Source: a virus
DNA length: 64,000 nucleotides
Direction: 5' to 3' (one strand)
Virus record (IMG/VR): IMGVR_UViG_3300025941_000015
Location: 32,001-96,000 of that record
The notes under the pieces were generated by a model. It saw nothing but the letters and a program-made list of their open reading frames with translations, made no database searches and was not told the DNA's origin. Below, one piece after another: positions 15,666 through 45,548 of the stretch (position 1 is its first letter; each line of letters begins with the position of its first letter). The position numbers were made by a program, and so were the translations under genes.

Positions 15666-16028
15666 ATGAGCGATACCGACATCGAAGATCCGCACGTCGA
15701 GGCGTGGGAGAACCGTCAGGAAGACCCGGCGTTCTCCGACGGCACCGTTGCCACTCCCGGCACCGAGTACCCGGTCGAGCCCGGCCCCGGCCCGGTAGAC
15801 GAGGAGGGCAATCCCGTCGACCCCAACGCTCCCGCCCGTGAGCCCGAGGCTCTCGGCCGCGGCAAGGCCGCCGACGACGACGATGATGACGACGGCTTCG
15901 ACCCCGCCGACTACTCCGTCGAAGAGGTGAACGCCTACGTCGACGCCAACCCGGAGTACGCATCCGAGATCGCCTCTCTGGAGGCCGGAGGGAAGAACCG
16001 CAAGGGCGTCCTCGACCACATCGGTTGA
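15666..16028 (+). CDS. acidic protein with small C-terminal helical domain
   Basis: GGAGG RBS; PADYSVEEVNAYV...E..GKNRKGVL. Confidence 0.65.
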   Translation: MSDTDIEDPHVEAWENRQEDPAFSDGTVATPGTEYPVEPGPGPVDEEGNPVDPNAPAREPEALGRGKAADDDDDDDGFDPADYSVEEVNAYVDANPEYASEIASLEAGGKNRKGVLDHIG

Positions 16029-16054
16029 CCAACAACGCTGTGAGGCGATACCCT
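16025..16054 (+). promoter_or_regulatory. promoter with operator-like site in the spacer
   Basis: TTGACC-18-TACCCT; CAACGCTGTG at 16033; GC hairpin 16102-16137 downstream. Confidence 0.5.
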
Positions 16055-16172
16055 CACGGCGGCAACAGCGACGGGTGCCTTGACAGTCCACCCGGTCCAC
16101 GCAGCGCCCTCTCCCTTCTCGGGGATAGAGGGCGCTGTGTCGCGAAGAACCCACTACCAGGAGAACGAAGAC

Positions 16173-16865
16173 ATGGCGAACAAGACCAAGGGCTCATGGC
16201 CCGCCGACACCCCGCGGGACATATGTTCGATGACGTGGTGGCCGAGCAACGCCGAGATGATGTACGACCTCGTGCGCATCGGCTACGTCGATCCCAACCG
16301 CAAGATCGTCGACCTCACCTACGGGCGCGGCACGTGGTGGACGATGCTCCGAGCCGAGGGCCACAAGCTGCGTCACCTCGTCGAGCACGACGTGTCGATC
16401 GACGGCGTCGACTTCCGCGACCCGCTGCCCGAGCGCGCAGGGTCGGCGCACACCGTCACCTTCGATCCTCCCTACGTCTCGACCGGCGGCCGGACCACCT
16501 CGACCATCCCCGAGTTCAACGGCCGCTACGGCGTGATGTACGCAGAGCGCACACCCGAGCTGAACCAGGAGCTGCTGATCAACCCCGGCATCCTGAACGC
16601 GAAACGGATCCTGAACCCCGACGGCAAGCTCATCGTCAAGGCCACGAACTACATCAGCTCGAACACCTACAAGCAGGCCGCCCGGTGGTCGATCGAGTAC
16701 GCCGAGTCGATCGGCCTGGAGCTGCGCGACCAGTGGTTCACCGCCGGTCACGTCCGAGCCCAGCCCGGCGGTCGCAAGGTCAACCACGCCCGCAACAACT
16801 GGAGCGTGGCGCTCGTCTTTCAGCCCGGCAAGACGATGCGGAAGCGGCCCGCCAAGAAGGCGTGA
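16173..16865 (+). CDS. amino (N6A/N4C) DNA methyltransferase
   Basis: SAM motif VDLTYGRG and catalytic FDPPY; AGGAG RBS. Confidence 0.75.
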   Translation: MANKTKGSWPADTPRDICSMTWWPSNAEMMYDLVRIGYVDPNRKIVDLTYGRGTWWTMLRAEGHKLRHLVEHDVSIDGVDFRDPLPERAGSAHTVTFDPPYVSTGGRTTSTIPEFNGRYGVMYAERTPELNQELLINPGILNAKRILNPDGKLIVKATNYISSNTYKQAARWSIEYAESIGLELRDQWFTAGHVRAQPGGRKVNHARNNWSVALVFQPGKTMRKRPAKKA

Positions 16866-17031
16866 CCGTGGACCGAGGTGGCGCCGTGCATCGGGCACTC
16901 GCTGTTGCTCCCAGGAGCGGCCCACTGCCCCGGCACCCGGCAGAGGCAAGCCGAGCAGACGGGGCACCAGTGCCCGTCGTACATGTCCTCACAGCGCTTC
17001 ACGGGAGCACACTACCGTTGTGTACAGCAGG

Positions 17032-17067
17032 TTGCTTTCCACAACGTTGTTGTGTACAGTGGTGTCC
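17032..17067 (+). promoter_or_regulatory. divergent leaderless promoter P1 with operator in the spacer
   Basis: TTGCTT-17-TACAGT-7-ATG 17068; CAACGTTGTTG at 17042. Confidence 0.65.
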
Positions 17068-17965: not shown

Positions 17966-18094
17966 TCGATTCCCGTTTCACACGGGTACAACGTGTGCTG
18001 CGGCGGGCCCCTCGCAGCATCCCGAGCGGCCCGCCGACCAAGCCCCCTCCCCCTCCGCAACGATGTTGCGATCGTGTGACGATGGGCACCGAGG

Positions 18095-18129
18095 TTGGAA
18101 CAGCGTTGTGGACCGTGTACTCTGGCCAC
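18095..18129 (+). promoter_or_regulatory. cassette promoter P2
   Basis: TTGGAA-17-TACTCT-GGCCAC-ATG 18130 (gene to 18480). Confidence 0.85.
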
Positions 18130-19685
18130 ATGACACGAACCAAGCCAACCCACACACCGTCCTCGATCTACTCCGAGCCCAACCCCATGGAGCGCCTGCT
18201 CCGCCGTGCGACGTACGACCTGCGCAACGCTCAGCTCACGCTCGACGGCATCGACAAGGACATCCTCCGGCTGCGCAAGCTGGCCCGGCACTACGCCGAG
18301 GAGGGCAACCACAGCGCCAAGCGGAGCGCCAACGACCATGCCGATCGGCGGGTGCTCGAACAGCGCAAGAAGACCGTTGAGCGCGACGCCCTCCAGCAGG
18401 AGCTGGAAGTGCTCAAGGTGCTCGTGGCGAACCACGAGTACTGGGTACCGCAGCCCCGCTTCTGGGAGCAGCAGTCATGACCACCTACACCGCCGTGAGG
18501 GTGTCCCTCACCGCCTTCGCCGTCATGGACGGCAACGACATCGTCGCTGTGTGCGAGAACATGGCGACCGCCCGCAAGGTCTACGACGAGACGACCGAGA
18601 TCTACGCCTCGATCCCCCGTCGGTTCAAGATCATCAAGGTTCCCTACATCAAGGACGAAGCATGACCACCACCTCCGACACCCTCCTCCTGCTCGACAAG
18701 GCCACGGCGTACTGGTACGCCTGCGGCTACAACGACCACCGCGATGGGGACATCGCCCCGTACTGCGATCCGCACGCGTTCGCTGAGCACTGGATCGCTC
18801 TGTGCGCCCGGCCCTCTCGCCCCAGCATGCAGGACGCTTTCCAGCAGTTCGCATTCGGGGTGAAGTGCACCCGGTGCCACGGCAACGAGGTCATCACCGT
18901 CGGTGCCGACCGCCCGGACTACTGGGGCAACTACGACACCGAGGAGATCCCCTGCCCGGAGTGCCAGGGAGAGGTGGAGTGATGGACACGATCGACTACA
19001 ACGCCATGCAGGAAGCTGCCATGCACATCATCAGCGCCCAGCGCTCGCTGCCCATCATCCACACCGTCACCATCACCCTCGACGGGGCGACCGGCGGCGC
19101 CCTGGTCACCATCGAGGGATTCACCTCCGATGAGCTGGACGAAACACTCACCCTCGAAAGGACCGTCCGATGACCACCCTCCCCGACCTCGACAACGACA
19201 CGTTGAAGTACACGTTCAGGAAGCAAGACCCCACGTCGTACAAGATCGTGTACAACATCTGGCGCTCGATCAACGGCCGCCCCGAGCAGAAGATCGGCAC
19301 CGTCGTCAAGACCCGCGATGGCGACTGGAGCCAGTCGGCGCACTGGGTGGCTGAGAGCAGCGACGGCGAACACCGGGGCAGTGGCGACACTCGACAGAGT
19401 GCCGTGCGCTCGCTGGAGAACCGGCTGCAAGGGCCGGAGTACACCGAGCGGAAGCTCCAGGCGTACCGCGACCAGCTTGCCGCCGAGGGCGCCAAGGCGG
19501 CCGCAGCCAAGGCGGCGGACGAGGATCTGATCGACGCCCTCATGGCCCGCTGGCCAGCGATCGCCGAGCGGTTGCTCCCGCTCCGCGAGAACGCCGGTCG
19601 CTTCACCAGCTACGCCGTCACCACTCAGCAGGTCATCGACATGCTCAACGCTCTGGAGACTTCACGATGAATCTGACATCCGAGG

Positions 19686-19720
19686 TTGGCAACAGCGTTG
19701 CGGACGTGTACTCTGTTCAC
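19686..19720 (+). promoter_or_regulatory. cassette promoter P3
   Basis: TTGGCA-17-TACTCT-GTTCAC-ATG 19721 (gene to 20095). Confidence 0.85.
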
Positions 19721-20520
19721 ATGACCCCAACCACCATCTTCCAGTCCCTCTGGGACGCCCCGCTCTCCGCTCGTGGCTTCATGAGCATCTCGACCCACGA
19801 CGAGGTCACCTTCAACGGCCTGCAGCACGGCGAGCTGTCGATCATCGGCCTGCGCAACGTGGCGGGCCTGGGCACCACGCTCACGATCCACGAGAAGGGC
19901 AGCACGCACTGGACGGGCCGGGGCATGAAGCCCTCCTACAACGGCGCCTCGATCATCACGATCCTCATCTCGGACGACCTCTGGGCGGGCGGCACCTCGC
20001 GTCGCTACATCGAGCTGTCCCGTGCGATCTCCGCCTCGACCAGCGTCACCGAGCGCGACTCGCTCAACGCCCTCCACGTCGGGATGCTGCGATGAGCCCC
20101 GAGCTGACCAACGCCCTGGTCGCTGCACACCGCTCTGCGCAGCTCGCTGCCAGCAACGCTCGTGAAGCCCTGAGCTACGCACAGACGGCCCTCAGGAAGG
20201 CCCAGGAGGCCGCTGACGAGGCGGACCTCGCCGCTGCGCACATCGCCGGTGCCTTCAAGATCGTTGAGCAGGACGCACGATGAGCGCCCGCCCGAAGCTC
20301 GTGCCCGGCCACACGTACCGGTTCACGTTCACGCCGACCGAGGCGCTCATCGCTGCGAGGCCGTACAACGTGACCCCCTACACCACCACCGTGACCATCA
20401 GCACGACGCCCGGTGGCGTGCACACGCCCAAGTCGGTCACGATGTGGGCGAACCGCTGGTGCACCCGTGGCCGGTACACGGTCGAGATCGTCGAATTGGT
20501 CGAGGAATCTGCCTCCGAGG

Positions 20521-20555
20521 TTGTAACGGCGTTGTGAGCCGTGTATCTTGATCAC
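20521..20555 (+). promoter_or_regulatory. cassette promoter P4
   Basis: TTGTAA-17-TATCTT-GATCAC-ATG 20556 (gene to 20897). Confidence 0.85.
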
Positions 20556-21094
20556 ATGACCGCAACCACCACCACCGCACCCGCCACCTACGCCAAGGCC
20601 GCCGCCGTCGCCGAGCAGATCACGCTCGCCGAACTGGCCGAACTGCTCGCCGCCGACGACAACCCGGACGTCTACCCCGGCAAGGGCAAGCGCAAGCAGA
20701 TCGCCATGAACGCCCGCCTGCGGGTGAACACGCTCGACACGGGCGCCACCCGCGGCTGGGTCGGCTACGACCGCTGCACCTTCGGCACCGGCTACACGAC
20801 CTTCGACGGCGTCACGGTCGGCTACCGCTACGACCGGCCCGTGTTCCGCTTCGAGCGCCACGGCGTCCGCATCGTGCAGGTCGTGGTCCCGTCATGAGCA
20901 GCAAGAGCACGGCCGCCCGTCGGGCATCGCAGGCCCGGTCGAACTACGCCGCCATGAAGCGGGCGTCCGACCAGGGCAAGAAGCAACTGGCGTGCCCCCA
21001 CGAGGTCGTCAACCCCGTTGAGGGGTTCGAGGGCATGATCCAGTGCGCCGCCTGTGGCGCCTACGGACCTTTCTGAGGAATCACCTCATCGACG

Positions 21095-21128
21095 TTGCAA
21101 CGACGTTGAAACGGTGTACACTGGCCAC
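21095..21128 (+). promoter_or_regulatory. cassette promoter P5
   Basis: TTGCAA-16-TACACT-GGCCAC-ATG 21129 (gene to 21458). Confidence 0.85.
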
Positions 21129-21565
21129 ATGACAAACACCACCATCACCTCCGCCTGGAACTGCAACGACACGACCAGGACCGCCTCCGTCCTCACGGCC
21201 GAGCAGGCCGCTGCTGCGGGCATCCTGCTCGCCGACGACGACGAGTTCGTCATGAACCTCCGCTCCTGGGACGTCGACGCCCCGTTCTTCATCATCGGCC
21301 GCTTCACCGGCCGCACGCGTCGCATGTGGCAGGAGACGTGCCGCACGATCGAGACCTTCGATGTCGAGACCGTCGCCATCGAGGACGACCGCGACGGGAC
21401 GTTCGCCATCTGGGGCGTCAGCGGCGCACGGCGCAAGGGCACCTGGGCCTGCCGCTGATCTGCGCAGGTCGCTCCGGGCGGGGCGACCGTGCGCGTGCCG
21501 GGGAGACGGGTAGACGGGACCGTCTCCCCGGCGACAACATCGTACGAAGAATCCTCCCTCTGACG

Positions 21566-21599
21566 TTGGAACAGCGTTGAAGACGTGTACACTGATCAC
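21566..21599 (+). promoter_or_regulatory. cassette promoter P6
   Basis: TTGGAA-16-TACACT-GATCAC-ATG 21600 (gene to 21902). Confidence 0.85.
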
Positions 21600-22109
21600 A
21601 TGACCGCAACCACACTCTCCACCACATTCGGCCCCGTCAAGACGGGCTCGACCGCCGCCTTCATCGCTGTTGTCAAGGCCGAGCGCCTGTGCCGCATCGG
21701 CACGACGTCCGTCGAGGGCACCAAGGTGCTCTGGCGTGCCGAGACCAGCCAAGCGCTGGAGACGCGCCTGCGCCGGGCTGGCCTGGGCCGCTCGTCCGAG
21801 TCCGGCCTGTGGTTCATGCGTGGCCGCTCCTCGTTCGCCGAGGGCGCCATCGTCCCCGGCGAGCTGATCGCCACGGTCGAGATCGTCGAGGTGGCCAAGT
21901 GAGCCGCCGCATCTTCCCCACGTTCGAGGCGTTCGTCCAGTACCACCCGATGTACCTCCAGAACCGGTACGGCGGCAAGTGCTTCGAGTGCGGGCAGTTC
22001 GTCCCACAGTTCAAGGGCAGCGTGGTCAAGGTGCACGGGAAGCACCGCATCGCCCACCTCCCGGTCGAGGGCCATTGCGAGGGTGCGAAGTGATTCTTCC
22101 ACACCGAGG

Positions 22110-22143
22110 TTGCAATGCCGTTGAAGACGTGTACACTGACCAC
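22110..22143 (+). promoter_or_regulatory. cassette promoter P7
   Basis: TTGCAA-16-TACACT-GACCAC-ATG 22144. Confidence 0.85.
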
Positions 22144-22908
22144 ATGACAAACACCACCACCAACACCGCCCCGAACGCCCACCAAGCCGAAGTCGACGGC
22201 CGCATCGCCGAGGCGAGCGTCGCCTACGCCAAGGCCGCCCAGAACGCCGCCTGGTGGGAGAAGCACACCACGTCCGCCTACGACGGCGAAGCCAAGCTCG
22301 CCGAGGCCGTCGCCAAGCGCGACGACACCCTGGCCGCCCTCTCCGCGGTCGAGGCCGAGTTCGAGGGCTGGAGCCGCTTCTTCCTCGTGCAGGCCAGCAA
22401 CGGCCACATCCACAAGAGCCTGTGGTGCTCGACGTGCTTCCCCACGACGCAGTACGCCTGGCTCCCGGCCCTGTCCGGCCTGACCGAGGCCGAGGCCGTC
22501 GCCGAGTACGGCGGCATCCTCTGCTCGATCTGCTTCCCCTCCGCCCCGGTCGAGTGGACGACGGGCACGAACAAGAAGGACGCCGAGCGCAAGGCCGCTG
22601 AGGCCGCCTTGAAGGCGATCGCCAAGACGCCCGAGGGCAAGGCCGTCATCCGCAAGCGCGACCTCGTGCGCAGCCACCAGTACGCGATCGACTCGTTCGA
22701 CCGCACGATCGCACGGCCCGCCGAGACGATCGCATTCGCCGCCAGCCGGGGCATCACGGTCACGCTCGACGACGAGCGCGTCGCCAAGGAAGTGCAGTGG
22801 GCCAACGAGGCCCAGGCCAAGCGCGAGCCCGTCGTCAAGAAGCTGGCCAAGGCCCAGGCGCAGCTCGACGTCGCCGAGGCGGCGCTGAACGCCGCTCTGG
22901 GGATCTGA
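22144..22908 (+). CDS. Zn-binding hypothetical phage protein
   Basis: WSRFFLV...GHIH....CSTC...LCSICFPSAPVEW. Confidence 0.75.
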   Translation: MTNTTTNTAPNAHQAEVDGRIAEASVAYAKAAQNAAWWEKHTTSAYDGEAKLAEAVAKRDDTLAALSAVEAEFEGWSRFFLVQASNGHIHKSLWCSTCFPTTQYAWLPALSGLTEAEAVAEYGGILCSICFPSAPVEWTTGTNKKDAERKAAEAALKAIAKTPEGKAVIRKRDLVRSHQYAIDSFDRTIARPAETIAFAASRGITVTLDDERVAKEVQWANEAQAKREPVVKKLAKAQAQLDVAEAALNAALGI

Positions 22909-22929
22909 TCAGGAATCACCTCCACGACG

Positions 22930-22963
22930 TTGCAACGGCGTTGTGGAGGTGTACACTGATCAC
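22930..22963 (+). promoter_or_regulatory. cassette promoter P8
   Basis: TTGCAA-16-TACACT-GATCAC-ATG 22964 (gene to 23188). Confidence 0.85.
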
Positions 22964-23206
22964 ATGACTGCAACCACCACCTCCGTTTCCACCCTCGCCG
23001 CAGGCGCCGTCATGGGCGCCGCGGCCCGCTGCTTCGCCGTTGGCGACACGGGCCCCAAGAAGGGCCACCGCATCATCGCTGAGATGCGCGGCGAGCGCGT
23101 CGGAGCCGAGGCCGAATGGTTCGCCCTGTGCGGCGTGCTCGCGCTCGTCCGCTTCGTCAAGGTCTCGGGCATCACTGAGATCTTCTGAGGAATCACCGTC
23201 GCAACG

Positions 23207-23240
23207 TTGCAACAGCGTTGCGACGGTGTACACTGTTCAC
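23207..23240 (+). promoter_or_regulatory. cassette promoter P9
   Basis: TTGCAA-16-TACACT-GTTCAC-ATG 23241 (gene to 23501). Confidence 0.85.
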
Positions 23241-24326
23241 ATGACACAAACCACCACCATCGCATCCGCCTCCGCCTACGACACCCCGCACTGGCTGCGC
23301 AACGCCGGGCTCGACGTCGAGGGCACGCACGAGGCATTCGTCGTGCTGTTCGACGACCTCGACCAGGCGCTCGCCTGCGTCAAGCTGGCCAGCGCCCAGG
23401 CGTTCGCCGCCTACGTGCGCCAGGGCGGCAACGCCCGCAACAAGCGTGCGTTCAGCGCCCAGTTCGCAGCCGTGACCAAGGCCCTCCGGGCCGCAGCCTG
23501 ACCAACCACCACCAAGGAGAGAACCCCCACCACCATGAGCGCAGCTCGATACACCGTCATCGGAGCGTGGCACGACCACGACTCCACGTACTTCCCCTTC
23601 ATCGTCCAGGCCGCCGACCTCTTCGACAACCGCTCGAAGCAGCTCTACAGCAACGGCGCCATGCGCGTCGTCTTCGACGGCAAGCCCGCCGTGCGCGGCA
23701 AGGGCGGCACAACGCCCTTCAAGGGCGAGACCGCCTGGGCGCACGCTGAGAGCCTCGCACGCTCCCTGCAGGTCTCTGAGCGCTACGTGAGGACCGTCTG
23801 ATGGCGCGCCTCCCGCTCGCCGAGCGCCTCGCCATGGTGCTCAACAGCCTGCCGAGCTACGCCGAGGTCGACGTCGTGTGCGTGCCCTACGAGGGTGCGC
23901 GCACCAACGAGTTCCGGCTGATGGCCCGAGACTTCCCCACGTACGACATCGAGCTGTCCCGCCGGTTCACGAACCTCACGACCGGCACCGAGTGGTTCGT
24001 CAAAGCTGAATCGCTCGCAGCGTTCGGCGTAGTCTCGGTGGAGATCCACCTCGACGACGTCAAGAACTGGAGCATCCAATGAGCAAAGGTCACGGCTTCC
24101 CCAGCGAGATGATCCACACGCACGCCTTCGAGCTGCAGGCACACCGCAAGAGCACCGCAGGACGGGCCCTGGTGCCGCTCACGCTGTTGAAGAGCAACGA
24201 CCGGGCGGAAGTCGAGGCGGAGCACGCACGGCGCTCTGAGGTCAATTCACAGCTCCGCAACCCCAGCCGCCTCATCATCGTTGAGAACAAGCGGTGGCGA
24301 GATGATGGAGTTTCTGGCCCCTGAGG

Positions 24327-24361
24327 TTGGAACAGCGTTGTGCGTCGTGTATCTTGATCAC
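24327..24361 (+). promoter_or_regulatory. cassette promoter P10
   Basis: TTGGAA-17-TATCTT-GATCAC-ATG 24362 (gene to 24592). Confidence 0.85.
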
Positions 24362-24790
24362 ATGACCGCAACCACCACCTTCAAGATCACCGTCCCCGTC
24401 GCCCACGTCTGGGCCTCCGGCGCCATGCGCGGCACGGGCGTCCGCATCGTCGAGATCGTCGAGGAGGCCACCATCCTGGGCGGCTGCCGGGCGATCGACG
24501 CCGCCGTCGCCCAGTGCAAGCACCCCCTCGCCGACGCCTCGCCCGAGATCGAGCCCAACCCCGCCCTCATGGGCTGGGCGCTGGGAGCGTGAGCGCCGTG
24601 ACGACCCGTCGCCTCTGCCCCGGCCTCTACGAGGTCTCCACGCCCCAGGGCGTGTTCACGATCGACCGCATCACGAACGAGTACGGCGGCTCGACGTACA
24701 CCGAGTGGTTCATCACGTGGCCAGGCGAGCGGAGCCCCGACGCCATCGGCATCACGCTGCGAGACGCCAAGATGATTGTGGCGGCAGAGG

Positions 24791-24824
24791 TTGGAACAGC
24801 GTTGTGAGCGTGTACACTGACCAC
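24791..24824 (+). promoter_or_regulatory. cassette promoter P11
   Basis: TTGGAA-16-TACACT-GACCAC-ATG 24825 (gene to 25142). Confidence 0.85.
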
Positions 24825-25320
24825 ATGACAACGACCATGAGCTGCGACACCTGCTACGACACGAAGACCATCGACCAGGGCGGGCGCGAGATCCCCTGCC
24901 CGGACTGTGTCTTCCGGTATCACCCGTCGAGCGTGACGATCGAGACCAACCCGGACTACGACCCCAAGTCGACCTCGATGTTCAACGTCCGGTACATCAT
25001 CCGCGACCGCTCGATGGGCAACTTCATCTACGGGAAGGCCCGCAACATGGACGACGCCATCCGCATCCAGCGCAAGCGCCAGGGCGTGATCAAGGCGGCG
25101 CTCACCCGCCGGGCGAACAAGGCTGCGAGGGCCGCCAAGTGAGCACGCTCATCCACTACGGCAAGCCGCGCACGCGGTCGTTCCCGACCGACGTCGACAT
25201 CTGGCTCCCCGAGGGCGCCATCGTCCTCCACACCGAGCGCCATCGCGCTGCCACGGTCATCACGTACCTCGTGCCGAGCGGGCGCACGTCGAGGCCCATC
25301 TGAGGAATCTCACAACGGCG

Positions 25321-25355
25321 TTGCAAGAGCGTTGTGACCGTGTACACTGGTCACC
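25321..25355 (+). promoter_or_regulatory. cassette promoter P12
   Basis: TTGCAA-16-TACACT-GGTCACC-ATG 25356; extra CAACGGCGTTG at 25313. Confidence 0.85.
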
Positions 25356-25478
25356 ATGACAGGCAACCAAGACCACGACCAAGACCGCCGCTTCCCGGCC
25401 ATGACCGCCACCCGCTACGGCAGCAACCACGACTGGTGCTACCGGGGCGACAACACCAAGTACAAGAACAAGAAGTGA
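25356..25478 (+). CDS. 40-aa peptide missed by the ORF track (MTGNQDHDQDRRFPAMTATRYGSNHDWCYRGDNTKYKNKK)
   Basis: Starts at the leaderless position of P12. Confidence 0.55.
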   Translation: MTGNQDHDQDRRFPAMTATRYGSNHDWCYRGDNTKYKNKK

Positions 25479-25545
25479 GCCCCAGCGGCCACTGTCACAC
25501 CCCCCAGTCACACTGAATCCCCTACCCAACGAAACCAGGAGAACC

Positions 25546-25929
25546 ATGACCACCACCATCAGCAACCCCGAGGTCCGCTCGACCGACCTCCTCGTGCACG
25601 AGCTGCTCGTGCAGCTCCGGGCCGCCGAGCGCGCCGAGGAGCGCGCCGACGCCATCAAGGCCGAGCTGGTCGAGCGCCTGGGCGACGGCGGCAAGGTTGA
25701 GACCCACGAGGCGAAGATCGCCATCGTGGCCAACAAGACCCAGGTCGTCGACATCGACGCCCTGCAGACCGTCGCCTCGAAGGGCTTCTTCTACAAGGTC
25801 ACCAAGCGGGTCGTCGACAACACCGCCTTCAAGGCGTTCCTCGCCCTGGAGCAGGTGCCCCAGGACGTGCTCGACATCGTGACCACGAAGGTCAGCAAGC
25901 CCGCCGTCCGAGTCACGATCAAGAAGTGA
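25546..25929 (+). CDS. hypothetical protein (similar to 980..1405)
   Basis: AGGAG RBS; similar sequence pattern. Confidence 0.7.
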   Translation: MTTTISNPEVRSTDLLVHELLVQLRAAERAEERADAIKAELVERLGDGGKVETHEAKIAIVANKTQVVDIDALQTVASKGFFYKVTKRVVDNTAFKAFLALEQVPQDVLDIVTTKVSKPAVRVTIKK

Positions 25930-26223
25930 TCCTCGACGACGGCCACCAGCACCACGTCGAGATCGAGCGTGAGAACCTCCCGCCCCGCTCGTGGTACCCA
26001 CGCTGCGACTGCGGCTGGGAGGGGTTCGGCCAGGCGTCTCGACGTGACGCTGAGGACGACGGCGACGGCCACGTCCTCAGCTTCACCCGCTGATCGCCCG
26101 TCGACGTGAGGCCGGTCAGGTAGGTGGCGCCACTGACGACCGGCCACAGCGCCCGGTAAAGCCGGATCGGGTTGGGAGCGCCCTCTGCACACCGCAGGGG
26201 GCGCTCTCGCGTACGCTGGAGCC

Positions 26224-26991
26224 ATGGAGTCTCGATCGAGGAGCCGGGCGCCGTCGGGCGCCGACCCGCACCTCGCTGCGCGCCTGGGGCGCCAGCAGGA
26301 GAACCGTGATCGCATCATCGGTGCGGGCGCCGGTCGCGAGCGCGTGCTGGGCAATCGAGCTGCGCTCTTCGAGGCCGGTGAGATCGACTTCGACCCGCAC
26401 ACGCTGTCGATGGAGTCGCTGGGCATCCGCAACGTCGAGCGCGACGTGCTGCACAACCGTGTCGAGAACAAGGTGCCGTACGGGCCGCACGATGCGTCGG
26501 TGTTCCGCAAGGCTGGTGAGGTGCGAGAGGTGCCCCTGACGGGCCCTGACGCCGTCACAACGATGCAGAGCCACGTGAGCCCCGCACGTGTCGCTGAGAT
26601 CGTCAGAGACCCGCACAGCGGCTCTGATCCACGCTTCCGAGGCACGCCTGCAGCCGAGATGCCACTGGTCGTCGAGCACATGACGCGCCACCCGGAGACG
26701 GGCGCCTGGGGCCGCACGAACGTGGTCTACAACGGCAACCACCGCATCGTCGCGGCCCTGCAGCAGGGGCAGACCTCGATCCCCGCTCGTGTCATCACGA
26801 GGGAGCAGCGCGAGTCTGCGTCCGACGTGTTCCGGCGAGACAGGACGCGCTTCAAGGACTCACGAGAGCAGCGCCTCGATGTCGGCAGCACCCGCCTGGT
26901 GATGGGCGATCCCACGATCAAGAGGGGCATGGGCGCTGGCATCTGGGACGAGGTCGCCAAGCAGGACATCGAGAACTACGGGAATACCTAG
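26224..26991 (+). CDS. ParB/Srx-like domain protein
   Basis: VTTMQSHV...MPLVV...VVYNGNHRIVAA...IPARVI; TACGCT-6-ATG. Confidence 0.65.
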   Translation: MESRSRSRAPSGADPHLAARLGRQQENRDRIIGAGAGRERVLGNRAALFEAGEIDFDPHTLSMESLGIRNVERDVLHNRVENKVPYGPHDASVFRKAGEVREVPLTGPDAVTTMQSHVSPARVAEIVRDPHSGSDPRFRGTPAAEMPLVVEHMTRHPETGAWGRTNVVYNGNHRIVAALQQGQTSIPARVITREQRESASDVFRRDRTRFKDSREQRLDVGSTRLVMGDPTIKRGMGAGIWDEVAKQDIENYGNT

Positions 26992-27000
26992 CCCGGCAGG

Positions 27001-27034
27001 TTGCAACTGCGTTGTGGTCGTGTACACTGGCCAC
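27001..27034 (+). promoter_or_regulatory. cassette promoter P13
   Basis: TTGCAA-16-TACACT-GGCCAC-ATG 27035 (gene to 27403). Confidence 0.85.
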
Positions 27035-27560
27035 ATGACCTACCACACCACCACCCCCGCCAACTACACCCCCGTCCTTGGCTCCGTTGTCCCCGGACCC
27101 TGGAACTCGAAGTACGCCGTCTCGGAGCACACGCTCGCCGTGAACCTCGCCAGCACCGCTGCGATCGAGGACGACGACCACACGGTCGTCCGGGCGATCG
27201 ACGACGCCGTCGCCGTGTTCGAGGACGACGACCTCATCAACGACGGCTCGATCCGAGGCTTCTGGGCCTGGGTCTGGAGCGGGCTCGACCGCGGCACGCA
27301 GCGTGACGTCGCCAAGCGCGCCGAGGCGCTCCTCGAAGCGCACCGCGCTGGCGGGTACGGCAGCAAGGCCGACCTCTTCGAGATGTTCGACGGCCAGCGG
27401 TGAGCGCGCTCACTGGCAAGGCGCTCGTCGAGCACCGCCGGGACCGCCTCGCCGACCTCGTCGAGATGCGGGCCCGGCAGGCCGCCGAGCTGGCCGAGAC
27501 CGATGAGGCGATCGCCGAGTGCATCGCCTCGATCCTCGACGCAGCCTCCGAGGAGCTGTC

Positions 27561-28196
27561 ATGAACCAGAGTCACGAGGATTGGCTCAACGCCGCCGGAG
27601 ACCCGGCCGCCACGCACGCCCTGATCAACCAGGCGGGCTCGTACGAGAACGGCCCGCACCAGCTCCCCCACACCACGCTGATCGCCGGGCTGATGTACGG
27701 GGCAGGCGCCCTCTACGTGCCGAAGGGCCGTGCGCAGTTGTGGTACGCCCTCGTCGTCCCGCTGTTCATCGCCGGGTGCCACTTCCTCCGCGACGGGGGC
27801 CGCACCCCGGCCTCTGAGTCATCGTGGTGGTGGTACGGCGAGTTCCACCAGACCCCGCTCTCGCTGTTCTTCTTCGCCCTGTCGATCGCCAGCGTGTTCC
27901 TGCTGAACGCCGAGGTGAACCGGCACAAGCGTGCCCGGTACTACGCCGCGGCCGCTGCCGCTCAGCTCGACGCAGACACCGCCTGGATCGCTCAGGGCGG
28001 GCGCACGGTCGTCGAGGCGACGGTTCGCTCTCACAACGACGTTGAGCCCTCACAGGGCCACACAGCGCCTCTCCCGACGTTGTGGCTGCCGAGCAGCCCC
28101 GAGCGCCGGGTGCGCCGTGGCGGCACGACGCTCAACGGCACACCGATCAAGGATCGCCGATCGGTCAACCCCGAGACACTCTTCGACGAGTACTGA
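27561..28196 (+). CDS. membrane protein
   Basis: About three hydrophobic segments; GAGGAG RBS. Confidence 0.6.
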   Translation: MNQSHEDWLNAAGDPAATHALINQAGSYENGPHQLPHTTLIAGLMYGAGALYVPKGRAQLWYALVVPLFIAGCHFLRDGGRTPASESSWWWYGEFHQTPLSLFFFALSIASVFLLNAEVNRHKRARYYAAAAAAQLDADTAWIAQGGRTVVEATVRSHNDVEPSQGHTAPLPTLWLPSSPERRVRRGGTTLNGTPIKDRRSVNPETLFDEY

Positions 28197-28206
28197 CAAC
28201 CCATGG

Positions 28207-28240: not shown

Positions 28241-28268
28241 CGACCCCTACCCACTGGAGAACGCCACC

Positions 28269-36980: not shown

Positions 36981-37717
36981 CTACTACAAGGAGCGCTCGA
37001 CCTCGAAGTGTCAAAGCTCTTGGGAGAAACTTCAGATTGCTGCTACCCTCCCGCAACAGCGATGCCCCGTAAGGTGCGCACCGTTCCAAGGGTCGGCAAA
37101 CGTGGGTTCAACTCCCATGACCTCGGTACGGGTCATCGTGAGTGGAGGCATCCACCGGGTCACCAGGCTCGTCGAGGTGGGTAGGCAGAAGGCTTAGCGG
37201 CCCGACACCTGGCACCTCGACGACCTGTCCGGTTGGTATGCCGAATCGGCGGCCCGCTCCAAGCTCGAATCCATGGAGTCAAGAGAGAGCACAGCATGGC
37301 CACTCCCACTGCAGTGCCGTTGTGCAACACCAGTGCAGTCGAGGAGCTGTGCGTGTACGTGCTACCGGCTGTGAGCCATGTGCCGTATGCCTGGGCTCAG
37401 TCCGGCTCGCCCCCACGTCAGAGGCCCTTTCCGTCGTACGCAGCGCCCCGACGGCCCGCTACAGTGCCCCCATGCCCATCACCATCATCACCAGCCACCA
37501 CCAGCTCGAACGAGACCATCTGAGCGATGAGGAGATCGCCGTGCACGCCCCACACCGGGTGCGCTGTTTGAGCTGCCCCAGCACACCGCTGATGACCATC
37601 GCTGTTGCACAAGAGCACTGTGCCAAGCCGCCCCGCAACCCCACTCCCACGCTCCACCGGCTGTTCACCATCGCCTGAGTACGGGCCTCCCCGTGCATAG
37701 GTGTTGCAGCTACCATG

Positions 37718-37840
37718 GCAACGCTGTTGCACAAGACCTGTGTGATCCCCGTATCACCACAGGGTGCGGGAGGATACCAGCAGGGCGTGCCGAACACAAC
37801 GTCGTTGCAGTGTGACGTCTGACCTACGCAACGACGTTGT
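37718..37840. promoter_or_regulatory. cluster of three CAAC-N3-GTTG palindromes
   Basis: CAACGCTGTTG 37719, CAACGTCGTTG 37797, CAACGACGTTG 37829 in non-coding DNA. Confidence 0.7.
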
Positions 37841-37940
37841 GATCCAGCCGCCTGCACGGTAGCCTACCCCCCCACCGCTTAACCGATCTGACGCCAGCCG
37901 GGCGGGCCAGGTCACCCTCAGTCGTAAAGGCCCTTCAACC

Positions 37941-38378
37941 CTATTCCTCGTACTCAAGAGCAACGGAGTTGTCGTACTCAAGCCCCAACAAGGCCATACG
38001 CTCCTGGTGCTTCTCCCAATACCACTCCACTGCATCGTCGTAGTCGTTGAAGTGCTTCTCGATACGCCGCCCGTCTGGCCACCGCAGGCGACAGCGCCAA
38101 CGGCCCTTGTGCCACCCAACATTCGGTGTTTCCACTGAAACGCTGTTGAGCTGGTTGTGGCGATCGCCCCCTATACGCAGGTTGCGCCTCCGGTTGTCCA
38201 GCGTGTTCTTGTTGATGTGGTCGACCACGTCACCCGGCTGGGCGCCCATGATGTGCCGGTGGAGGTACACCATCTTGCCGTTCAAGCGCCTTACGGCATA
38301 GCGGTAGCTCTTCCCATGGCGCCCAAACTCGCAGATGTACCAGCCTGTGAGGTCAATATCCGGGTCGGCAACGATCAT
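37941..38378 (-). CDS. HNH homing endonuclease with AP2-like C-terminus
   Basis: YLHRHIM...VVDHINKNTLDNRRRNLR; GVW-like/WRCRL...KHF. Confidence 0.85.
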   Translation of the reverse strand: MIVADPDIDLTGWYICEFGRHGKSYRYAVRRLNGKMVYLHRHIMGAQPGDVVDHINKNTLDNRRRNLRIGGDRHNQLNSVSVETPNVGWHKGRWRCRLRWPDGRRIEKHFNDYDDAVEWYWEKHQERMALLGLEYDNSVALEYEE

Positions 38379-38405: not shown

Positions 38406-38442
38406 TAACAGCGTTGTGGCTGGCCGCCCATCGTGCTACCCT
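38406..38442 (+). promoter_or_regulatory. promoter with operator overlapping the -35
   Basis: TAACAGCGTTG; TTGTGG-17-TACCCT; AAGGAGG then GTG 38469. Confidence 0.6.
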
Positions 38443-38468: not shown

Positions 38469-41400
38469 GTGGAAGCGCACATCAGTACCTACGGCACCGA
38501 GGCGGGGAGCACTCAGCACTGGCAGTTGTTCGTCGACGGCCTGTTCATTGCCGAAACGTCGGTACCGGAGCATCTGGTGGTGTTCCAGCGCATTGCTGAT
38601 GTGGTCAATGTTGGAGCCTGTACCTGTCAGCCGTACTGGCCTGTCGGCCATCCGAACCACATCTGCACCTGTGGGGCGTTTGTGAGCAACAGCGTTGAAT
38701 CTGGCGGCACGGCGAACCATGGGGCATGAATGGGTCGATTTCACCGTGCGGGCGAAGCTCTCACGACACAACTCCGCTCAGGACGACTTCGACGACGAGC
38801 GGTGGGCCGAATTGCGCCGTTTGATCGAGGAGCTGTGCAAGCAGTTCACTGATATTGACGCAGAGGCGTACTCATGAGCGTGCAGTGCCACGGAACCACC
38901 AGTCAGGGGCGCTGTCGTCGTCAGGCCGAAGAGGGTTCAATTACCTGCCATCTGCACGAGCACCACGACGTCCGTGGTGCGTACGAGTTGAAGACGAATA
39001 CGGAGATCCGGCGGCCCGGTGAAGTGGCTATCGGCGTATTCGGCGGCAAGCCGGACGGATTCGCCTGGGTGTCGGCCGACAAGGCTCGGGCCTTCGCTAT
39101 GGAGCTGTTGCGGGCGGCTCGCGACGCCGATGACTACGCTCAGGGGCTCCCATGACCGAACGGCATTGCAAGTGGTGCGGTATCCGGCTGCCGTGGTGGC
39201 GCTGGAGGAACTGTCGAGACTGCCACTTCGATCTTGTGTTCGACCGCTCGTCCCCCACTCACCGCAAGAACGCCCGCTACCCGTCAGTAACGGACGAACC
39301 ATGATCACGGCGACCATCCACGACGACTACAACGGATCAGGCCGAGTAACCCAAGTGCGCGTCGGCAACGTCATCGTCTGGACTTGGGCCTGGCACGTCG
39401 ATGGCCCACCATCAGCCGACCTCGCCGACCTGCTCAACACACTTGCCCGTTACCCGTCAGTAACGGACCAAGCCACACACAACACCGAGGAGTACTACGG
39501 CTTCGAGCCGGGTCAGAAGGTAGGAGAAGTCATGACCGGACCAGAAGGCTTCGTGGACGACGATCCACGAGGCGTGCCCACCGAGCTGCTGCAAGCATGG
39601 TGGCACGAGACGATCGACAACATGTTCAACGACGGGCTGCTGCCGTTGCGCATGATCTGTGACAACAAGGCGGGCAACCGCATGAGCATCAGCTACATGG
39701 CACCAGAGGAAGAGGAAGAATGAGCAAGGACGTGAACATCACCAGCGAGAGCGGTAAGCGGGTGACGATCGAGCGCAACGTCGTTTCCAACACGGAGCAC
39801 GCCGTCTACCGGTCGGAGATCGGTGTGTGGCCCGACGACAAGCCCTCCCAGCGCGCCTGGGCGCTCTCGGTCGTGACACAGAAGCTGATCCCGCTGTTCA
39901 AGACCGATGACGACCTGAGTGAGCTGTTCGAGGCCGCTGAGCGGATCGTGGAGTGGGTAGAGAACGGGAAGGAAGAGGAATCGTGATCCCCCAAGGACGA
40001 GTTACACCGGCCACGCTGCAGAAGCGGGCCGAGGAGATGGCGAAGCTGTTCGCCGAGTTCGCCGACATGGTGAAACGGGTGCAACTGCCTGAGTCGGCGC
40101 TCGGGCAGCAGTACATCGACCCGAAGGGCTCCTACATCGAGCGGAGCCGGGCGAAGCAGGACTGGTACCGGGACACGCCGACCATGCCCCTGCACGTGGT
40201 CACCACGCCCCCGAGCGAGCACGTCGAGCAACTGCAGGCCATCTCCAGGGGCATGGCCAACGCTGTTCGGCGGATCCGAAAGCTGGAGGAGGACGTGCGT
40301 CTCCTGCACGAGGCGCAGTTGGCTACTGTTCAGGACGTGCTCAGACTGCAGGAGAGCGTGAGACGTCTGGAACACCACGATGGCTCGCAGCAGGAGCACG
40401 GCTGATGCCCCGCCCCGCTGCCGCCCAGGAGCCCCATCTCGGGTGGGCCACCTCCGAAGACATGATGCGTGAACTGATCTGCCGGTTCAAGATGACTCAG
40501 TACACCGACGGCATCGAATCGTTCGCCGCCGTGGAACGTGCCCTGGTCTTGGCGGAGATGCTCGGCAGCATGAGTGCCCCCGAGCGCGAGTACCGAACGG
40601 TGGACGGCTGATGCCCGGACCCGCCACCGTCGACTCGCTCGTCTTCCAGGGCTGCTCCATCCATCGGGGCCACAACGTGAAGCTCTGCATCGGGTGTGTG
40701 GACGATTCGCTCCGCAGGCTCGTCATGGTCGTCCAGACGCTGGTCGACGTCAGCGAGGAGCGTCACGCCGCCACCCTGGAGCGCCAGGATGCCACCATCG
40801 AATCCTTCAAGGCCATCAAGACCGCTCTAGAGCTGTTGCACCCAGAGGAGATCACCGAGTGAACCGCGTCGGCTGGCGCAAGACCGAAGTGGTCGAGGGC
40901 CACTTCCACTGGTACCAGCCGAGCGATGATCTGACCGTCACGGGCATCAACATGCCAATGACGGGCGGGATGCCGGAGATCTTCCACACACACATGATCA
41001 GGGGTGCGATCGGCACGACCACGAGCGGTCAGGTCGAGAAGGACGCCCCGTTCCACTTCCACCAGTTCCCAGCCCCATGAGCGACGACATCTCTGTGCGC
41101 GAGGAGCGCTTCATCGCGCCTGACCTTCACGGCGACGAGATCCGCATGGGCATCCGCATGATGTCGGTCGGGCCCGCTGGCGAAGAGTGGCTGAACGAGC
41201 ATGCGCCCGGCTGGCGCGACCACGTGACCACCATGGACATGAACGTCGCCCTCACAGTCTCCGACTCCGAGGTGCTGCGTACGGCAGCACCGATCCAACT
41301 GATCAAGAGCTGCCGAGCCATGCTCGCCAGAGCGCTGGCGGAGAAGATCATCGATCGCCTCGAACCCATCACCTCGCGCTACACCACCGACCGCCACGAG

Positions 41401-42237: not shown

Positions 42238-42267
42238 TTGCGCACAACAACAATGACGTTGTAGAGT
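42238..42267 (+). promoter_or_regulatory. promoter of the HTH gene, operator in the spacer
   Basis: TTGCGC-18-TAGAGT; CAATGACGTTG 42251-42261. Confidence 0.6.
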
Positions 42268-42306: not shown

Positions 42307-42726
42307 ATGGCAACCATCGAGATCGTCGGAGCCGCAGAGGTGGCCGAGATCCTCGGCATTGGGAACACGAACTTCTCCCACCTGCGCAAGCAGCGGGCCG
42401 GTACTGACGATGCGTTCCCTGATCCCATCGTCGTGCTCAAGTGTGGCCCGATCTGGAAGAAGAGCGACGCCGTCAAGTACGCCAAGACGTATGCGGCTCG
42501 CCGTCGGCACATCCCCGCTCCGGCGGCGCCGAATGGCACGGCAGTCGAGGCGAAGAACGGCACGGCCGTTGCCAAGAAGGTCGCCTCGACCCCCAAGGCC
42601 AAGGCCACTCCAGTGGAGAAGGCCGCTGCGACCCCGAGCAAGAAGGTCGCTCCCCGCGAGAAGGTCGCTCCCCGCAAGCTGCCCGCCAAGAAGGCTCCGG
42701 TCAAGAAGCTGGCCCTGGCGCGATGA
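42307..42726 (+). CDS. AlpA/Xis-like HTH protein with histone-like PAKK tail; candidate regulator
   Basis: IVGAAEVAEILGI...FPDP......GPIW; C-terminal KVAP/PAKK repeats; AAGGAG RBS. Confidence 0.75.
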   Translation: MATIEIVGAAEVAEILGIGNTNFSHLRKQRAGTDDAFPDPIVVLKCGPIWKKSDAVKYAKTYAARRRHIPAPAAPNGTAVEAKNGTAVAKKVASTPKAKATPVEKAAATPSKKVAPREKVAPRKLPAKKAPVKKLALAR

Positions 42727-42788
42727 TGTCTCTGACCTTGGAGCGGTGGACCGTCCTCCACCGCTCCTCGGTCTGAGTCGAGGCTCTG

Positions 42789-43121
42789 ATGGCATTCCCA
42801 GGAAGCAAGTTCGCCCCCGGCACGGTCAACACCGAGGTGCTCCAGCCGGAGCAGTTCTCCAAGCCCGGCCCGTGGTACCCCATGGTCTCCTCACGTGTGA
42901 CCGAGGCGCGCTACGACAAGGGCCTCATGCAGATCCACGTCATCTTCCGAGACGGCACCCCGTGGGTGTACGACGGCGTGCCCACCAACATCTGGCGCAA
43001 CTTCCGTCGATCCGCATCACCCGGCAAGTTCATCAACCGTGTGCTCAACGGGTACAGCAATTACCACGGTGGCTTCAACTACGCTGATGACAGTGGGGAA
43101 GACGAAGACGACGGTGAGTGA
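42789..43121 (+). CDS. KTSC-domain protein
   Basis: SSRV..ARYD......VIFRDG..WVYDGVP...W..F..S.SPGKFIN. Confidence 0.8.
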   Translation: MAFPGSKFAPGTVNTEVLQPEQFSKPGPWYPMVSSRVTEARYDKGLMQIHVIFRDGTPWVYDGVPTNIWRNFRRSASPGKFINRVLNGYSNYHGGFNYADDSGEDEDDGE

Positions 43122-43360
43122 TCACCATCCGGCATGGTTGAAGTTCCACAGGATCTTGTAACCAGCGATCGCTGCTGCCACCGCTAGCAGGATCGGCACA
43201 ACGGTGTGATACCAGGCCAGCTCGCCCTGGCGAGGGGGTCTCTTTCGCACCGGACTACTCCTACCAAGGATCACTCGACGCTCACATGACCTTTGTGGCT
43301 TCTCGGAGCTGAAGGCATTAGCGTCGCGGGTTCGTAACCCGACCGAAGGGAAACCGAAAC

Positions 43361-43867
43361 ATGACAAGCAAACGTTTGATGGCGATCGCCCTGGGTGCAC
43401 TTGCCCTGGCGACCACCGCCTGTACACCGTCCCAGATCAACACCTGGGTCAGTTGGCACAACAGCGATCCTGCTGCTGCCGATGCGTTCTTGGAGACACC
43501 CGAGTTCCAAGAACTCAGCGACGATGGTCTGCAAGAAGCAGTCCGACTCAACCCACCTGCCGCCCCGGCTGGAGGGTCAACCGACTCATCCAATGGACAG
43601 TGCGTCGGATTCAAGGGTCTGCTCGCTCAGTACAACCCCGGCTGGTCCGTAGACCGCATGGCCGGGATCATGTACCGCGAGAGTCGCTGTGATCCCTCGG
43701 CTTCCAACTCGTGCTGTTCGGGACTGCTCCAGATGCACCGGATGCACGTTCCTGTCCCCGAGTGCGGCGTGTGGTCTCGTAACGACCTCTACAACGCCGA
43801 AGCCAACGTCTGTGCCGCCGCTCAACTGTTCAGGGCATCGGGCTACGGCGCCTGGTCAACGTCATGA
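43361..43867 (+). CDS. lipoprotein lytic transglycosylase (SLT-like)
   Basis: Signal peptide ending LATTAC; IMYRESRC, GLLQM, AEANVCAAAQL, GYGAW. Confidence 0.75.
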   Translation: MTSKRLMAIALGALALATTACTPSQINTWVSWHNSDPAAADAFLETPEFQELSDDGLQEAVRLNPPAAPAGGSTDSSNGQCVGFKGLLAQYNPGWSVDRMAGIMYRESRCDPSASNSCCSGLLQMHRMHVPVPECGVWSRNDLYNAEANVCAAAQLFRASGYGAWSTS

Positions 43868-45548
43868 ACATCACCAGCGTTGTGGCAAGCCTGGTGGAGC
43901 TGTAGCATGTCGCCCGTCGGGTTCCCCCGCATTCAACGCCCCTGCCGCTTCAACCCGGTATGCGGGGAACGCACAAGCGAACGGCACCGTCCATCGGGTC
44001 TCTGGATTCACGTCCTATTCCCAGGGCACCGCCCGCCGCACGTCCCTTCCCAGGGGGAGCCCGACGCGCCATGACCGACGACGGACTGATTGCTTTCGTG
44101 GCCTGGTGCCGCATGAACAAGCCGACCATCGTGTTCGACCCCGAGGTAGCACGACGCGTCTACGATGCCTATGACAACGACCGTGACCCGAGGGTGCGGT
44201 ACCCGTCAGTAACGAACGACCCTGACCCTCTCAACCCACCGGGACCGCAAGGAAGATGAAGCGCAGCACAGCAGCCAACGTCGTCATCGTGGCGGCGCTC
44301 TTCGTCTTGATGGTCGTGCTGTTCGTCATTGCTGGCTGGATCCTGAATGGCGCTCTGTGATCGTCCAGATCGTCGCTGGTGCTGGTCTCATCTTCTTGGG
44401 GGCCTTGACGATCGGTCTGATCATCGAGGACTGGATCGAGAACGGTAGATGAGCCGCGGTATCCCCCCGATCGAGCGCTTGCCGCTCTGTGGCAAGGAGT
44501 ACCGGTACGCCAAGAAGACCCTGACCTGTAGACGGGCCGAGGGACACAGAGGGAAGCACCGCGTGTCACGCGAGGCCATCACCGACGAGATCAGGATCCG
44601 AGCACGCAATGCAAACACCTGACTATGTAGTCATCGCCGTCATCATCGGCATTCTCACCGCCTGCCTCCTCCTCGATGTGTGGGTCAGGAAGAAGTGGGG
44701 TGGGTGATGAACAAGGTGTGGCTTCACAGCTACTGGGTGATGCTCGGCGTCGAGTCGGGTGAGCGCTCGAAGCTCATCCAACGGGCCTGGCTCACCTCTG
44801 TATTACCGCCCTTCTATCGGGGTACAGGTATCTCGATCCGCCTCGGCAGGCGTTCTCTCAAGGTCGGCGTGTGCTATCCCCGCATGCCCGTGACCGTGGA
44901 CGAGTACACCTACGTTGACGACATGGAGCAGAACCTCGATGCCCTCCTTGGGTACGAGCTGAAACAGGAGCAAGAGGAGATCAGGAAGTGGCGCGTAGAC
45001 GAACAGAGCCCGACAAGCACGACACCGACTTCAGACGCAAGCTGAGCCGCATCCCCAAGAGGGATGTGATGACGATGGTCGACGGCCACGTCGGGGAGGT
45101 CAGCAGAGCTGTGCTGGCAATGCAGACGGGCCCCGAGCCGCAGTTCGCCCACGCTCTGTGGGAAGCGACCCGTTTGTCAAGAGAGTTGACGATCATGCTC
45201 GAAGAGCTGAGCCCCTTTGAGACCTAAACGTCATTGTTTGAATCCTGTTGATCCGGTAACTTGTTACACATGAGCAATGGGCATTACGAAGCACAGGAAG
45301 CGGCTTCCGACGTTCGTGCCTTCATGGCGAGCTACGGGGCCGATTGCGAGGTGTTGCCTGCGGGCGATCGCGTCGTCATCCATATCCCCCTCCAGTCCGT
45401 TACCGATCTGCTCTCTGCGTCTCTCATTCGAGGACACGTCGTGTCGCGGCCACGACCGAGCCTCGAATCCGTCTGACCCCCAAGTCAGTAGCCAACAGCC
45501 GGGCCGCCCAGGGCCCGGCTGCTGCGCGCCCGTAGTAGCGTTGTGCGC

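Follow-up and report, generated by a model that had tools for sequence, protein, structure and literature searches.

Which protein, if any, reads the palindrome CAAC-N3-GTTG that recurs at the promoters of an uncultured phage, and does it switch these promoters off? This question was raised by the 64,000-nucleotide stretch analyzed here (the window; positions are counted from its first base), which corresponds to bases 32001-96000 of the IMG/VR virus record IMGVR_UViG_3300025941_000015 (105,626 bp, complete according to CheckV). An earlier note on this DNA had proposed that the palindrome is the operator of a repressor, that a single switch controls more than 20 promoters and that the helix-turn-helix (HTH) gene 42307-42726 regulates itself. 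Our analysis identified a selected motif, CAACG-N-CGTTG, at about 22 promoters and inside late genes. Overall, we lean slightly towards the account in which one sequence-specific protein encoded by this phage clade, most likely the product of gene 42307-42726 (hereafter P0001), acts on this motif to repress promoters.

Enrichment and Structure of the Palindrome

The window contains 22 copies of CAAC-N3-GTTG compared to 0.70 +/- 0.90 expected from dinucleotide shuffles (shuffle maximum 4), which bears out the window-wide recurrence noticed in the earlier note. The enrichment concerns the N3 spacing alone: 18 copies are found between positions 16000 and 40000, whereas each of the other spacers (N0 to N12) gives 0-2. 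When all 4-Nk-4 palindromes (2,560 tested) were scanned without bias, the motif came out on top in the early region and took second place elsewhere in the genome. It shows dyad symmetry, and its full form is CAACG-N-CGTTG (perfect 5-1-5 copies, n = 9); sites also occur in tandem, at distances of 11 and 32 bp here and of 22 and 17 bp in relatives. A general artefact affecting N3 palindromes was rejected, since phages BRock and LuckySocke have no N3 excess, showing merely a 3-base periodicity, and since another over-represented palindrome, TGCC-N3-GGCA, is explained at the amino-acid level (see below). As judged from the DNA itself, the motif is very probably a real protein-binding site.

Among the sites that had been listed previously, those at 17042, 18058, 37719, 37797, 37829, 28034 and 38687 are exact, those at 38406 (TAAC), 43872 (CACC), 42251 (CAAT) and 37054 (GATG) carry one mismatch, and the one at 45227 is indeed the reverse complement of the 42251 10-mer. 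The site at 16033 (CAACGCTGTGA) has two mismatches, is unconvincing and should be dropped.

Cassette Promoters of the Early Region

The palindrome is present in all 18 cassettes of the early region, whose promoters are located between positions 17052 and 32994 (Table 1). In 16 of them, the ATG lies exactly 6-7 nt past the -10 hexamer and the predicted transcripts are therefore leaderless. The cassette palindrome spans -31 to -21 (centre at -26) and overlaps the 3' half of the -35 hexamer TTG(C/G)AA. Since the bases that separate it from the -10 (-20 to -16) vary freely while the palindrome is kept, its conservation results from selection and not from recent copying. A degenerate unit is found upstream, with a second GTTG exactly 11 bp off, and two units are directly in tandem at 25313. 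In the 30376 cassette, the site is centred near -37 and its right arm supplies the -35 (TTGCGA-16-TACACT).

These cassettes have other recurrent traits. Their -10 lies within a perfect 8-bp palindrome, GTGTACAC (for example at 21114-21121), with 12 copies in the early region compared to 0.2 for other spacings, and this palindrome is not found in the non-cassette promoters. Extended 13-9-13 inverted repeats surround the -35 region at 22927-22961 and 23204-23238; the changes in their arms between copies are compensatory, and these repeats may form U-less terminator hairpins and thereby insulate the cassettes. The first codons of the cassette genes (18130-33050) are ATG-AC(C/A) followed by ACC-rich codons (MT.TTT...), and the resulting CA-rich tract past the start may enhance leaderless translation. 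Directly upstream of the cassette array, gene 16080-16865 is DNA methyltransferase-like (phrog_24333, E 6e-13), so that the methyltransferase label initially given to it is supported, although Pfam returns no match.

Position of the Palindrome in Other Promoters

In other promoters, the motif is found at different distances from the predicted transcription start. At 37829, 38406 and 43872 (TTGTGR-17-TANNNT), as well as at 30376, the right arm is the -35 element and the centre is at about -38. The TTGTGG-17-TANNNT promoters previously noticed at 38406 and 43872 are real, and a further example, TTGTGA-17-TAGCCT, goes with the 37829 site, which is 32 bp away from that at 37797. The sites at 17042 and 42251 occupy the spacer up to the edge of the -10, and their centres are at -20 and -18, respectively. 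The motif therefore shows three offsets from the start site, -26, about -38 and -18/-20, which are 12 and 6-8 bp apart, always over the -35 or the spacer of promoters whose spacers measure 16-18 bp. Such offsets fit neither a sigma element nor the geometry of a single activator. A sigma -35 element would keep a fixed distance to the -10 and would need no symmetry, whereas the motif is dyad-symmetric and overlies the -35, the spacer or the -10 at positions unfixed relative to the polymerase elements; selected copies without any promoter nearby also speak against such an element. On this point, our results agree with the earlier note, which had set aside a sigma element because of the variable position.

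Two other elements were observed around these promoters. The promoter TTGTGA-17-TAGCCT (37797-37900) faces the 3' end of a convergent gene carried by the minus strand (37941-38378); the hypothesis that this gene encodes a repressor was rejected, as its product is an HNH endonuclease. Downstream of this promoter, the stretch CCCCCCCACCGCTTAAC is conserved in the related loci L025, L028, L036 and L037; it could serve as an origin, mark a genome end or encode a small RNA. Furthermore, a conserved structured element is located at 37045-37150 (+ strand; positions 15-110 of L025), after a -10-like TACCCT. It includes a long closing stem and a T-arm-like hairpin, GTGGG-TTCAACT-CCCAT (minimum free energy -44 kcal/mol, z -2.3). 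Its assignment to a tRNA or to an Rfam family was rejected (no ARAGORN tRNA call and no Rfam match), and it may be a tRNA-like small RNA.

Copies within Late Genes

Genes outside the early region carry 12 sites compared to about 1.45 expected from synonymous-codon shuffles (7 vs. 0.70 and 5 vs. 0.75). None of 300 shuffles reached the observed count in this codon-preserving comparison, which the earlier note had suggested. The in-frame control spacings N0, N6 and N9 are each found 2-3 times in late genes. Eleven of the 12 late-gene copies read C-AAC-NNN-GTT-G in frame, and the rare codon GTT is used for Val in 11 of the 17 contexts in which it completes the motif, compared to a baseline of 15% (p = 5e-6) and to 5 of 37 contexts for control spacings. 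This excess of GTT codons indicates that the late-gene copies are kept by selection at the DNA level. TGCC-N3-GGCA is as over-represented in late genes as the motif (12 vs. 1.3); it shows no synonymous-codon bias (p = 0.29) and therefore reflects an Ala-x-Gly amino-acid pattern. The synonymous-codon test thus separates regulator sites hidden in coding sequence from amino-acid patterns. Internal promoters were rejected as an explanation of the late-gene sites, inspection having revealed no TANNNT at the right distance.

Conservation in Related Loci

Homologues of P0001 were found in metagenomes (n = 32). Every locus that covers the region upstream of the P0001 gene keeps a TANNNT -10 and an adjacent CA(A/T/C)(C/T)G-N-(C/T)GTTG, and the 42251 site and its TANNNT are conserved upstream of the P0001 homologues in nine aligned sequences. 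The proposal that gene 42307 carries the site in its own promoter is confirmed, with one mismatch, and extends to every relative found. In a distant clade (L028, L029, L036 and L037; 41-48% identity), the promoter of the P0001 homologue carries three tandem sites, 22 and 17 bp apart, extending over the -35 TTGTGG and the spacer. The sites at 37797 and 38406 are likewise conserved in synteny, L025 having the perfect CAACGACGTTG where the window has TAAC (38406). Loci including a P0001 homologue (42 kb in total) contain 11 N3 sites compared to 0-3 at other spacings, whereas two high-GC terminase relatives without P0001 homologue contain none in 21.6 kb.

Candidate Regulators

In the AlphaFold2 model of P0001, residues 1-67 are confidently modelled (predicted local distance difference test score, pLDDT, about 87) and arranged in the order strand, helix, helix, beta-hairpin, helix. 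Residues 70-139 form a predicted disordered tail rich in Lys, Ala and Pro (pLDDT 43-50), ending in a conserved KKLALAR. The protein has no Pfam match at E up to 1, no PHROG match and no PDB sequence match by profile. Nearly all its structural neighbours are winged helices of the MerR type, with a Foldseek probability of 0.98 for BrlR and MtaN. VIA-align gave Z 6.1 and a root mean square deviation of 2.6 over 60 residues for the DNA-binding domain of RacA, Z 5-6.4 for RacA, BmrR, CvkR and SoxR, 4.5 for BldC and 4.2 for Pukovnik Xis; the Atlas search agrees with a MerR-like fold. We therefore assign the N-terminal part to the MerR-type winged helices with moderate confidence. Its HTH and wing are the most conserved columns of the family, and P0001 is a credible DNA binder. 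P0001 departs from canonical MerR proteins by the absence of the long dimerisation helix and of the C-terminal effector domain; likewise, the spacers of 16-18 bp found here differ from the over-long spacer of 19-20 bp of canonical MerR promoters, which contains the operator and where activation proceeds by DNA distortion. The gene that follows the P0001 gene, 42789-43121, encodes a KTSC domain (Pfam E 1.2e-11) and always follows it in relatives, forming a conserved syntenic pair.

The assignment of the motif to P0001 is based on the sites found in its own promoter in all relatives, on its wider conservation than that of the alternative proteins and on its DNA-binding fold. We put it forward tentatively, as a possibility with somewhat less than an even chance. 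Autoregulation of P0001 would fit these promoter sites. The two other genes proposed initially, 31661-31864 and 2266-2721, also encode MerR/excisionase-like winged-helix candidates (Table 1).

Table 1. Sites of the motif, candidate regulators and host-related gene in the window (strand given where assigned).
Feature	Position	Strand	Remarks
Alternative binder, 151 amino acids	2266-2721	+	weak MerR_1 match
WhiB-like transcription factor	7980-8234	+	marks an actinobacterial host; possible partner of sigma-A region 4
CAACGTTGTTG in spacer of TTGCTT-17-TACAGT	17042-17052		centre about -20; leaderless ATG at 17068
Extra perfect site	18058-18068		40 bp upstream of the 18098 cassette site
Array of 17 cassette promoters	18098-32987	+	consensus A(G/C)GTTG(C/G)AAC(A/G)GCGTTG-N8-9-TACACT-N6-ATG
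Cassette sites (11 bp), starts	18098, 19690, 20524, 21098, 21569, 22113, 22933, 23210, 24330		
Cassette sites (11 bp), further starts	24794, 25313 and 25324 (tandem), 27004, 28210, 29625, 30376, 32572, 32977		
Perfect intragenic site	21010-21020		early region
Perfect 5-1-5 palindrome CAACGACGTTG	28034-28044		intragenic
Alternative binder, 67 amino acids	31661-31864	+	excisionase/HTH_17-like winged helix; weak P0001 paralogue; in the 30403 cassette operon
Perfect site	37719-37729		within the 260-bp non-coding region 37680-37940
Perfect 5-1-5 site CAACGTCGTTG	37797-37807		kept as CAACGTCGTTGCA in L028 and L037; one mismatch in L036
Perfect 5-1-5 site CAACGACGTTG	37829-37839	+	right arm is the -35 of TTGTGA-17-TAGCCT; centre about -38
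TAACAGCGTTG over -35 of TTGTGG-17-TACCCT	38406-38416	+	upstream of gene 38469-38729
Perfect site	38687-38697		close to the 3' end of gene 38469-38729
CAATGACGTTG abutting -10 of TTGCGC-18-TAGAGT	42251-42261	+	promoter of gene 42307; centre -18
Candidate regulator P0001, 139 amino acids	42307-42726	+	residues 1-67, MerR/excisionase-like winged HTH
CACCAGCGTTG over -35 of TTGTGG-17-TAGCAT	43872-43882	+	
Near match, reverse complement of the 42251 10-mer	45227-45237	-	kept at the syntenic place in L025
Late-gene site CAACGCCGTTG	49714-49724		in frame Asn-x-Val (GTT)
Three late-gene sites (53701, 54961, 56545)	53701-56555		in the gene of a 2023-aa protein; all in AAC-NNN-GTT frame

Phage Genome and Host

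The genome has 64% GC and nearly all its genes are on the + strand. Pfam tallies include tail sheath, tube and baseplate proteins, indicating a myovirus, as well as DnaB, primase, DNA polymerase A, RecA, SpoVS and a WhiB-like factor, whose gene points to an actinobacterial host. No integrase was found in these tallies, which derive from an incomplete annotation, and the phage appears to be a lytic myovirus. Based on the terminase, the nearest isolated phages are Streptomyces phages (45-48% identity), and the only closer relatives are contigs from soil metagenomes and two contigs of metagenome-assembled genomes (one from Actinomycetota and one from Nocardioidaceae). A megablast search against isolated phages gave no match. 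Scans of IMG/VR viral contigs with the cassette pattern, the SNF2 helicase and the P0001 alignment did not retrieve any relative of the clade, and a scan with a 19-nt conserved pattern gave only chance matches in low-GC phages. In the terminase scan, the matches comprised a fragment of this phage, two contigs of high GC and numerous phages of 43-47% GC, none of which had a P0001 homologue or the motif. A generic scan for sigma-70 promoters and terminators was uninformative on this GC-rich phage genome.

Proposed Repression and Its Alternatives

In the mechanism that we propose, CAACG-N-CGTTG would be the site of one sequence-specific DNA-binding protein of the phage clade. At about 22 promoters, the protein bound over the -35 and the spacer would shut out the sigma-A RNA polymerase, and the leaderless early cassettes would be switched off together, constituting a temporal switch. 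The copies carried by late genes would provide extra binding points, acting as roadblocks, as a protein reservoir or as compaction nuclei. The most likely single binder would be P0001, a MerR-like winged helix with a histone-H1-like tail, which would also repress its own promoter. Repression is suggested by the geometry of the sites, since all three offsets would block the polymerase; on this sequence evidence, the binder of the motif probably represses. With about 22 promoters carrying the motif, the single switch for more than 20 promoters put forward in the earlier note was a fair proposal. A variant that we consider unlikely would make P0001 a phage-encoded, sequence-specific silencer of the nucleoid type, combining a RacA/BldC-like winged helix with a histone-H1-like tail. 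It would nucleate on more than 40 sites, including those that selection maintains in structural genes by means of rare GTT codons, and shut about 22 leaderless early promoters at once; at a late stage of infection, it might also spread along the genome and compact or organise it.

Several observations weigh against the proposed mechanism: (i) the left arm is less conserved than the right arm and than the upstream GTTG found at a distance of 11 bp, and the true binding unit could be a phased direct repeat bound head-to-tail; (ii) GTTG doubles as the TTG of the -35, so that a part of its conservation reflects promoter function; (iii) a distance of 6 bp between half-sites leaves little room for a classical HTH dimer, and P0001 has no dimerisation helix; (iv) all the structure matches of P0001 have Z below 8; (v) the terminase gene lies about 3 kb downstream of the P0001 gene, and the P0001 fold also occurs in small terminase subunits; (vi) the loci of relatives were found via P0001 itself, which biases its co-occurrence with the motif; and (vii) the recognition helix of P0001 and the CGTTG half-site are both invariant, so that nothing co-varies. 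A co-variation test has therefore no power here, and the relation between the helix and the half-site is one of co-conservation, not of co-variation.

The alternative that survives best keeps the operator and changes its reader. The binder would be another phage protein, namely the 31661-31864 product (early, exerting negative feedback), the 2266-2721 product or an unannotated small protein, such as a ribbon-helix-helix protein, and P0001 would be a mere member of the regulon. The 67-amino-acid protein encoded by 31661-31864, a weak P0001 paralogue transcribed from the 30403 cassette, gives a match to phrog_597 'DNA binding protein' (E 1.5e-8), but it has only four close homologues compared to 32 for P0001, whereas the motif spans a wider clade. 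No motif site was found near 2266-2721. An 11-bp 5-1-5 palindrome suits a beta-sheet reader and most early proteins are devoid of annotation, but no ribbon-helix-helix domain was detected by Pfam. Altogether, we regard this alternative as rather unlikely.

It is less likely still that a transcription factor of the actinobacterial host reads the palindrome and serves the phage clade as a timer or gate for its promoters. In favour of this reading, phages with terminases sharing only 62% identity retain the motif, and no phage protein is tied directly to it. However, a conserved phage DNA-binding gene has tandem sites densely packed in its promoter, a pattern suggestive of autoregulation, and, to our knowledge, the motif matches no known actinobacterial operator. 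The actinobacterial LexA box, GAAC-N4-GTTC, differs in spacing and arm: the arms of the motif are CAAC and GTTG, its spacer is N3, and N4 is not enriched.

A role in promoter recognition or activation appears very improbable. As with the T4 MotA box, the motif would then be bound by an activator, or by a sigma-A that the WhiB-like protein of the phage has remodelled, and the cassettes would be middle promoters. In favour of such a role, the GTTG arms coincide with the TTG of the -35 in every promoter class, the WhiB-like protein is phage-encoded and the cassettes are conserved over about 40 bp. However, no single activation geometry accommodates offsets that differ by 12 and 6-8 bp, the site is dyad-symmetric, selected copies in late genes have no TANNNT at promoter distance, and the cassettes already have a usable -35, a spacer of 16-17 bp and a -10. 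Finally, it is hardly credible that the palindrome is not an operator but a sequence targeted by a restriction system or by the DNA methyltransferase of the phage (16080-16865): the methyltransferase-like gene is just upstream of the cassette array and short interrupted palindromes are typical enzyme targets, but restriction targets are avoided in phage genomes, whereas these sites are selected for and concentrate on promoters, at functional positions.

If repression by a clade-encoded protein is the right account, this finding identifies the main transcriptional switch in a clade of actinobacterial myoviruses from soil that is as yet uncultured. In that case, about 20 compact and leaderless promoter-operator cassettes, nearly identical to one another, would be available along with a candidate cognate regulator and could become a repressible expression toolkit for high-GC Gram-positives.

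Comparison with Known Systems

The C1 repressor of phage P1, a temperate plasmid prophage, acts on many dispersed operators that are asymmetric 17-mers. The likeness lies in one repressor and dispersed operators on separate units, but the P1 sites are asymmetric and serve lysogeny.

The repressor/stoperator systems of Cluster A phages (L5, Bxb1, TipsytheTRex) are also similar, as one protein acts on more than 20 short dispersed sites found on promoters and inside transcription units, leading to genome-wide control (PMC9283540). Cluster A stoperators are 13-bp asymmetric sites oriented with transcription, are bound by a two-domain monomer and ensure lysogenic immunity (PMC9283540). In contrast, the site reported here is palindromic and often located within codons, the candidate protein is unrelated, and the incomplete annotation reveals no integrase. 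P0001 itself combines one folded domain with a disordered tail.

In architecture alone, the motif resembles the 17-bp repeat TGTTCGG-N3-CCGAACA of Cluster O mycobacteriophages, also an inverted repeat with a 3-bp spacer from actinobacteriophages, which is present in more than 30 copies between and within genes and whose binder is unexplained (PMC4351075). This repeat differs by its sequence and its longer arms (7 bp), is not described in a cassette combining a promoter and a leaderless start, and no codon-level selection test is reported for it (PMC4351075). The synonymous-codon test used here could be reused on other phage repeat motifs, such as this unexplained repeat.

Lastly, P0001 resembles the minimal MerR-like binders, D29 Gp36, Streptomyces BldC, Bacillus subtilis RacA and phage Xis, which are small winged helices without the coiled coil and effector domain of MerR (PMC12266134). 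It differs from them by the absence of detectable sequence similarity and of any Pfam or PHROG family, and by an extra tail of 70 residues rich in Lys, Ala and Pro. Gp36 and BldC bind direct repeats. RacA forms a symmetric dimer on a short inverted repeat and, in addition, compacts DNA (PMC12266134). D29 Gp36 is a small MerR-like repressor found in a lytic phage, whose targets are phage genes (PMC12266134). The Gp36 and RacA precedents make it plausible that P0001 is a repressor, and control through CAACG-N-CGTTG would be an ordinary kind of phage regulation, encountered here in a new group.

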